A stretch of 64,000 nucleotides of DNA from Escherichia coli (lineage in GTDB: Bacteria > Pseudomonadota > Gammaproteobacteria > Enterobacterales > Enterobacteriaceae), in the NCBI RefSeq assembly GCF_013315695.1, contig NZ_CP054353.1. One strand, written 5' to 3'. A model generated the notes under the pieces. That model was not told the origin of the DNA, did no database searches, and saw only the letters and a list, made by a program, of their open reading frames with translations. Both the position numbers and the translations under genes were made by a program. The stretch's first letter is position 1. Every line of letters starts with the position of its first letter. Below, piece by piece: positions 32,542 to 33,456 of this stretch.

Positions 32542-33456
32542 TCACAAGCACTTTGGATTTGCCCCTATATTATCACTTAACCCATTACAAGCCCGCTGCC
32601 GCAGATATTCCCGTGGCGAGCGATAACCCAGCGCACTATGCGGATGCCATTCGTTATAATGCTCGAACGCCTCTGCAAGGTTCTTTGCTGCCGTTAACCC
32701 GTCTGGTTTGGGCATGATACTGATGTAGTCACGCTTTATCGTTTTCACGAAGCTCTCTGCTATTCCGTTACTCTCCGGACTCCGCACCGCCGTGTTCTTC
32801 GGTTCAAGTCCCAACATCCGGGCGAACTGGCGTGTTTCATTAGCCCGGTAGCATGAACCATTATCCGTCAGCCACTCCACTGGAGACGACGGAAGATCGT
32901 TGCCGAAGCGGCGTTCCACCGCTCCCAGCATGACGTCCTGTACTGTTTCACTGTTGAAGCCGCCGGTAGTGACCGCCCAGTGCAGTGCCTCACGATCACT
33001 GCAGTCCAGCGCGAACGTGACACGCAGTCTCTCTCCGTTATCACAGCAGAACTCGAACCCGTCAGAGCACCATCGCTGATTGCTTTCTTTCACGGCCACT
33101 CTGCCTGTATGTGCCCGTTTCGATGGCGGTACAGCAGGTTTTCGCTCAAGCAACAGCGCATTCTGGCGCATGATCCGGTAAACACGTTTGGCATTGATCG
33201 CAGGCATACCATCAAGTTCTGCCTGTCTGCGAAGCAGCGCCCATACCCGACGATAACCATACGTGGGCAGCTCTCCGATAACATGGTGTATACGGAGAAG
33301 CACATCCGTATCATCAGTGTGACGACTGCGGCGGCCATCCATCCAGTCATCGGTTCGTCTGAGAATGACGTGCAACTGCGCACGCGACACCCGGAGACAA
33401 CGGCTGACTAAGCTTACTCCCCATCCCCGGGCAATAAGGGCGCGTGCGCTATCCAC
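32542..33456 (-). CDS. insD: IS2 transposase OrfB (InsD; DDE integrase domain); C-terminus runs through the right inverted repeat to a stop 12 bp beyond the IS end
   Basis: 304 aa [33 protein letters not shown]... matching IS2 InsD. Confidence 0.85.
32549..32553. repeat. IS2 target-site duplication, copy 1 (CACTT)
   Basis: Identical 5-mer abuts both IS2 ends. Confidence 0.8.

Follow-up and report, generated by a model that had tools for sequence, protein, structure and literature searches.

The window, by which is meant the whole 64,000-bp stretch of DNA analysed here, carries a copy of the insertion sequence IS2 lying within ymgF, and a search of these 64 kb for IS2 ends identified none besides those of this copy. 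The element breaks ymgF after codon 40; in silico excision of the IS together with one copy of its target-site duplication regains an intact 72-aa YmgF. The features of the locus, with the basis of each assignment in brackets, are as follows:

33871..33990, minus strand: ymgF 5′ fragment, codons 1-40 (reconstruction of the gene)
33871..33875, minus strand: target-site duplication AAGTG, left copy (sequence)
32554..33870, minus strand: IS2 copy, 1317 bp, reference length 1331 bp (both ends located; near-identity to IS2 copies)
33829..33870, minus strand: left inverted repeat (IRL), 42 bp, intact (IRL/IRR alignment; A32G and A42T relative to the reference)
33414..33779, minus strand: orfA (insC), 121 aa, intact (translation)
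33456..33462, minus strand: A6G programmed -1 frameshift window, intact (sequence; motif as in PMC3299598)
32542..33456, minus strand: orfB (insD), 304 aa instead of 301 aa (longest reading frame)
32554..32580, minus strand: what is left of the right inverted repeat (IRR), 27 bp out of 41 bp (alignments and the domain definitions of PMC3299598)
32569..32572, minus strand: deletion junction, 14 bp gone at some point between 32569/32570 and 32571/32572 (alignments)
32549..32553, minus strand: target-site duplication AAGTG, right copy (sequence)
32450..32548, minus strand: ymgF 3′ fragment (reconstruction of the gene)

The left end of the element begins with TAGACTGG (in longer form TAGACTGGCCCCCTGAATCTCCAGACAACC) and its right end finishes with GGGGCAAATCCA, the terminal CA and the cleavage domain being kept; on the plus strand, positions 32554-32583 read tggatttgcccctatattatcacttaaccc. 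With reference IS2 the copy shares the orfA/orfB arrangement with its A6G frameshift site (AAAAAAG), a DDE (rve) core and an N-terminal helix-turn-helix (Pfam HTH_21, rve and rve_3), a 42-bp IRL starting TAGACTGG which carries two subtype substitutions, and a 5-bp duplication, here AAGTG on each side. Over positions 1-1301 it is 100% identical to three other copies of the same subtype, and has 99.46% identity to the fhuA::IS2 of BL21 (7 mismatches in 1301 bp). It differs from the reference in being 14 bp shorter, in an orfB of 304 aa and in its IRR, where 27 bp are left of the 41 bp that run from cleavage domain through blocks B, II, C and III to ...CA-3′ and where II and C are missing. The element is a damaged copy of IS2 and not another element, and it is because of this damage that two defining features of IS2, the 41-bp IRR and the length of 1331 bp, are lacking. 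While IS2 itself is already known, this particular right-end deletion is new.

The subtype is seen at 33823-33839 (minus strand) as A32G together with AA to TT at IRL 42-43, which turns TTAAATAAGT into TTATTTAAGT. The change sits within the published docking site of the OrfA repressor (TAAATAA) and inverts the centre of a small palindrome, CACTTA..TAAGTG. The exact subtype 55-mer is the best match (at least 99% identity) in 551 E. coli genome records, with BL21 having the reference form.

The 14-bp deletion in the right inverted repeat

Each end of IS2 consists of a cleavage domain, which takes up the outer 11 bp, and an inner domain that binds protein and comprises blocks B, II, C and III (Lewis et al., 2012, PMC3299598), of which II and III show conservation between left and right end (PMC3299598). 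The reference IRR was printed as a 41-bp oligonucleotide, TGGATTTGCCCCTATATTTCCAGACATCTGTTATCACTTAA, by Lewis et al. (2011, PMC3219604), and it is this sequence that the sequence-only reading of the window had correctly given as the normal right end. The right repeat of genome AF3 (NZ_OZ547117.1) agrees with it. When the window is aligned with AF3, all of its bases across the element and flanks are identical (1601/1601) apart from a single 14-column gap, where GTGATAACAGATGTCTGGAAATATAGG in AF3 corresponds to GTGATAATATAGG in the window. Both the 14-bp loss from the IRR and the length of 1317 bp rather than 1331 bp that had been proposed for the element were thus confirmed, the latter by its measured extent of 32554-33870. 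On this alignment the deletion is best described as one clean indel in otherwise identical DNA and not as a chance resemblance.

Counted from the outer tip, the deleted bases are IRR 19-32, 18-31 or 17-30, these three placements being equivalent because of a 2-bp TT/AA microhomology. The IRL/IRR alignment puts the conserved block II (TCCAGACA) at 19-26, the variable block C (TCTGT) at 27-31 and the conserved block III (TATCACTTAA) at 32-41, limits which combine the text of PMC3299598 with our own alignment of the two repeats. The window still has the complete cleavage domain (1-11) and block B (12-18), it lacks blocks II and C, and block III is kept, shifted 14 bp outward so that it now abuts block B. 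The missing segment had been placed in the transposase-binding part of the repeat, which agrees with the loss of II and C from the B/II/C/III binding domain defined in PMC3299598.

A slip of replication or repair at the 2-bp microhomology would be the likely cause, slippage or imprecise repair being taken as the default mechanism for such a deletion. Promotion of the deletion by a hairpin is unsupported: single-stranded DNA of the reference repeat is predicted to fold at -1.8 and -1.0 kcal/mol, with z about 0.

Sister genomes and rarity of the deletion

The window holds no other IS2 copy, and sister genomes were used as a proxy for a comparison within the genome. When 5,426 complete E. coli genomes were searched by megablast with the element plus flanking DNA, four proved to have the same ymgF::IS2 site, namely AF3, NZ_OZ546925.1, NZ_OZ546911.1 and MSB1_4I (NZ_LR898874.1), and in all four the matching stretch is 1615 bp, compared with 1601 bp in the window. 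Their copies have the same site, duplication and subtype as that of the window, with zero substitutions over 1601 bp, but possess the intact 41-bp IRR and an InsD ending in ...NRCLEI, both of which are lacking here. Over the full 64,000 bp, MSB1_4I differs from the window by three SNPs and the 14-bp deletion and by nothing else. The SNPs at 16233 and 26546 are synonymous, in fadR and minD, while that at 38888 lies between the annotated bluF and bluR. Since the sister genomes carry an intact copy free of substitutions, the insertion is common to a very close clone and the deletion came later; read from these comparisons, it post-dates the insertion and arose in place, recently.

No match to the 41-mer across the deletion junction was obtained among the 5,426 E. 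coli genomes, 72,556 plasmids or 100,044 species-representative genomes, and a search of the JGI metagenomes with a junction 30-mer was likewise negative. The control, a 42-mer of the intact right end, was found at 10,636 places in 3,069 genomes. Similarly, the gene-position index holds no record of the 304-aa orfB product or of the reconstructed 412-aa OrfAB fusion, whereas the 301-aa product of the same subtype occurs there in 512 blocks. The allele, referred to here as Δ14, is private to this genome. It could be used as a strain-specific marker, because the ymgF::IS2 allele is otherwise common to the clone in blood isolates from the UK and rectal isolates from Australia.

These data bear on whether the short right end might be a natural and still mobile isoform of IS2 that entered ymgF as such. 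An intact duplication, two open reading frames and the keeping of the cleavage domain and block B would all suit such an isoform, which is nevertheless extremely improbable, as the identical insertion with a full repeat in four sister genomes points to a short end derived in place, and no second copy with this end occurs anywhere searched, against those 10,636 intact ends.

A permissive search with the 70-nt right end against all genomes gave a best full-length match of only 92.9% identity, in a search confounded by the way BLAST splits canonical copies and biased toward shortened ends. The match belongs to a frameshifted IS2 on plasmid p1 of Br_190_kylling (NZ_CP182388.1) with another right-end deletion, of 15 bp (GTCTGGAAATATAGG). 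This deletion lies at about 2540-2569 of locus L010 and is present in NZ_CP182375.1 too. It may also be mentioned that plasmid pCFSAN029787_01 (NZ_CP011417.1; locus L011, about 2530-2572) has a fragmentary IS2 in which 12 bp are missing at the repeat's inner border. The p1 and pCFSAN029787_01 copies resemble that of the window in lacking bases (15 bp and 12 bp respectively) inside the right repeat or at its border, and the p1 copy has likewise lost its orfB stop codon. However, different bases are deleted and both are annotated as frameshifted or fragmentary pseudogenes, whereas both frames of the window copy are open. Internal right-end deletions thus recur as a class of IS2 decay.

It is also conceivable that an error of sequencing or assembly produced the 14-bp gap and that the true genome has a normal 1331-bp IS2. 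The gap is the sole indel in 64 kb relative to MSB1_4I and has no counterpart among other genomes, plasmids, metagenomes and called proteins; moreover, IS2 is multi-copy in the sister genomes, at 7-18 places in each, and repeats are prone to misassembly. However, a clean loss of 14 bp in non-repetitive, non-homopolymer DNA is atypical for a consensus error, and polishing against other copies would bring back the common sequence, not a new one. Elsewhere the window agrees almost completely with an assembly made independently, which indicates high quality, while the 2-bp microhomology suits a real slippage event and comparable internal right-end deletions are found in the other decayed IS2 copies described above. 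We therefore consider an error unlikely.

The preferred reading, to which we give a probability of roughly 0.77, is that an intact IS2 inserted in ymgF and that a later loss of 14 bp from the IRR, in this lineage only, immobilised the copy. A 1331-bp IS2 would have entered ymgF in a recent ancestor, making the usual 5-bp duplication, and the 14 bp would then have been lost inside the IRR in the lineage of this genome alone.

Coding consequence and predicted effect on transposition

The deletion alters the end of InsD. In an intact copy the protein finishes with ...NGLSDNRCLEI, and in the window RCLEI is replaced by IGANPKCL; the stop is lost and a tail of eight new residues is formed because the usual TAG stop, which is part of the repeat, is no longer in frame. 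orfB therefore overruns the IS by 12 bases, which belong to the duplication and ymgF and include the stop codon at 32542-32544. The sequence-only reading had anticipated both the new tail and the 12-bp overrun past the IS end, and the 304-aa frame, its final residues and the position of its stop bear this out.

The change begins at residue 297. The Pfam domains HTH_21, rve and rve_3 are all above cut-offs in the orfB product and the last of them ends at residue 281, and an IS2 transposase with a C-terminal GFP fusion is fully active in vivo (PMC3219604). As the new tail lies beyond all of the Pfam domains and such a fusion is active, it is predicted that the tail is probably harmless. Since the repeat itself codes for the native tail, the constraint on the tail probably comes from the DNA site and not from the function of the protein. 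With the catalytic core, orfA and the frameshift site (AAAAAAG at 33462-33456) intact, the copy can probably still make transposase. A different weighting would make the new tail the main consequence, altering or abolishing the activity of the enzyme, with the DNA site of lesser importance. The tail is indeed altered and the protein now ends in host sequence, but given that the change starts past the last Pfam domain and that the native tail is probably held by the needs of the DNA site, this is highly unlikely.

The preferred reading places the main defect in the repeat. In the model of PMC3299598, B and II are the proposed main targets of the OrfAB DNA-binding domain and IRL residues 20-42 (II, C and III) serve as an anchoring sequence. 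The footprint of an earlier study spanned IRR 16-41 (PMC3299598). Within the IRR, protection is described as strongest at the cleavage domain and block B and weaker at the inner blocks (PMC3299598). Only the IRR acts as donor in the first step of transposition, the IRL having no donor function, and the 1-bp difference in length between the two ends matters, as it positions the donor tip in the catalytic pocket (PMC3299598). Minicircle formation was abolished by single-base deletions at positions 14, 26 and 29 of the IRL, these data being for that end and not for the IRR (PMC3299598).

The ends of IS911, with their alpha, beta and gamma blocks, are built like those of IS2, with a cleavage block on the outside and, further in, blocks to which the OrfAB N-terminal domain binds, a design defined by deletion and gel-retardation analysis (summarised in PMC3299598). 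In IS911 either end can be the donor, while in IS2 only the IRR can, and a defect of the IRR in IS2 is consequently without back-up.

Judged by this published domain mapping (PMC3299598), the copy in the window is probably immobile, the IRR being the only donor end of IS2. Of the two main binding blocks, the loss of 14 bp takes away one and displaces the one that remains by 1.3 helical turns, and on both counts the formation of minicircles should fail. With blocks II and C taken out of the transposase-binding domain and B fused to III, the first step (the figure-of-eight, then the minicircle) would be blocked, given that only the IRR is cleaved and transferred and that the spacing between binding and cleavage domains matters down to the single base. 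Minicircles would not be formed with the transposase of this copy or with that of other copies, and transposase supplied by other IS2 copies should bring no rescue because the defect is in the DNA site. Some residual binding of transposase is possible, since the copy still has its cleavage domain and block B.

In the IS2 minicircle, the junction promoter requires a spacer of 17 bp, one base of which comes from the host, and the TA tip of the IRL supplies the Pribnow box (PMC3219604). Following the 17-bp spacer rule and the IRL TA, our own reconstruction from the published text puts the -35 hexamer at IRR 17-22, where the intact TGGAAA becomes TGATAA in the window and matches to the consensus fall from 4/6 to 2/6. 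The -35 hexamer of the junction promoter would thereby be lost, and any circle that did form would be without it. A promoter scan of 32000-34000 identified no new outward promoter at the junction.

In this way one small deletion strikes three overlapping functions of the IS end, namely the transposase-binding site, the -35 of the junction promoter and the stop codon of orfB. The finding is an ordinary private mutation, probably inactivating, in a mobile element that is very well known. It opens up no question of long standing and is of little consequence beyond annotation, for which the appropriate label is an IS2 with a defective right end, and orfB is to be annotated as a variant product running 12 bp into ymgF. 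A more speculative suggestion, and a long shot, is that the Δ14 copy acts as an anchored source of transposase, unable to move but still expressing OrfA together with an OrfAB whose tail is host-encoded. If so, it could alter the IS2 load of the genome or its regulation in trans, and would be a ready natural mutant for the separate roles of block II, block C and the junction promoter -35.

Genes around the insertion site

Directly downstream of the IS2/ymgF remnant, and in the same orientation, is a gene for an autotransporter adhesin of 882 aa (29402-32050, minus strand), belonging to the ECIAI39_1904 family in RefSeq naming. A truncated autotransporter fragment is also present at about 27743-28087. 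The gene umuC (19186-20454, minus strand), encoding the catalytic subunit of DNA polymerase V, has an internal stop codon (...PRPGS*QLMAV...) and is listed as a pseudogene in the annotation of the sister genome MSB1_4I as well, while the adjoining umuD is apparently intact. The sole Rfam match at the gathering threshold in the window is the sRNA C0299 (20933-21011, minus strand; 107.7 bits). Finally, the first part of the window (about 1-4770) is occupied by a cluster beside ymgE, placed there by its position in the identical sequence of MSB1_4I, with products that include a TonB-dependent receptor, ModD, a SAM-dependent methyltransferase and components of an ABC transporter (a FecCD-type permease and an ATPase).
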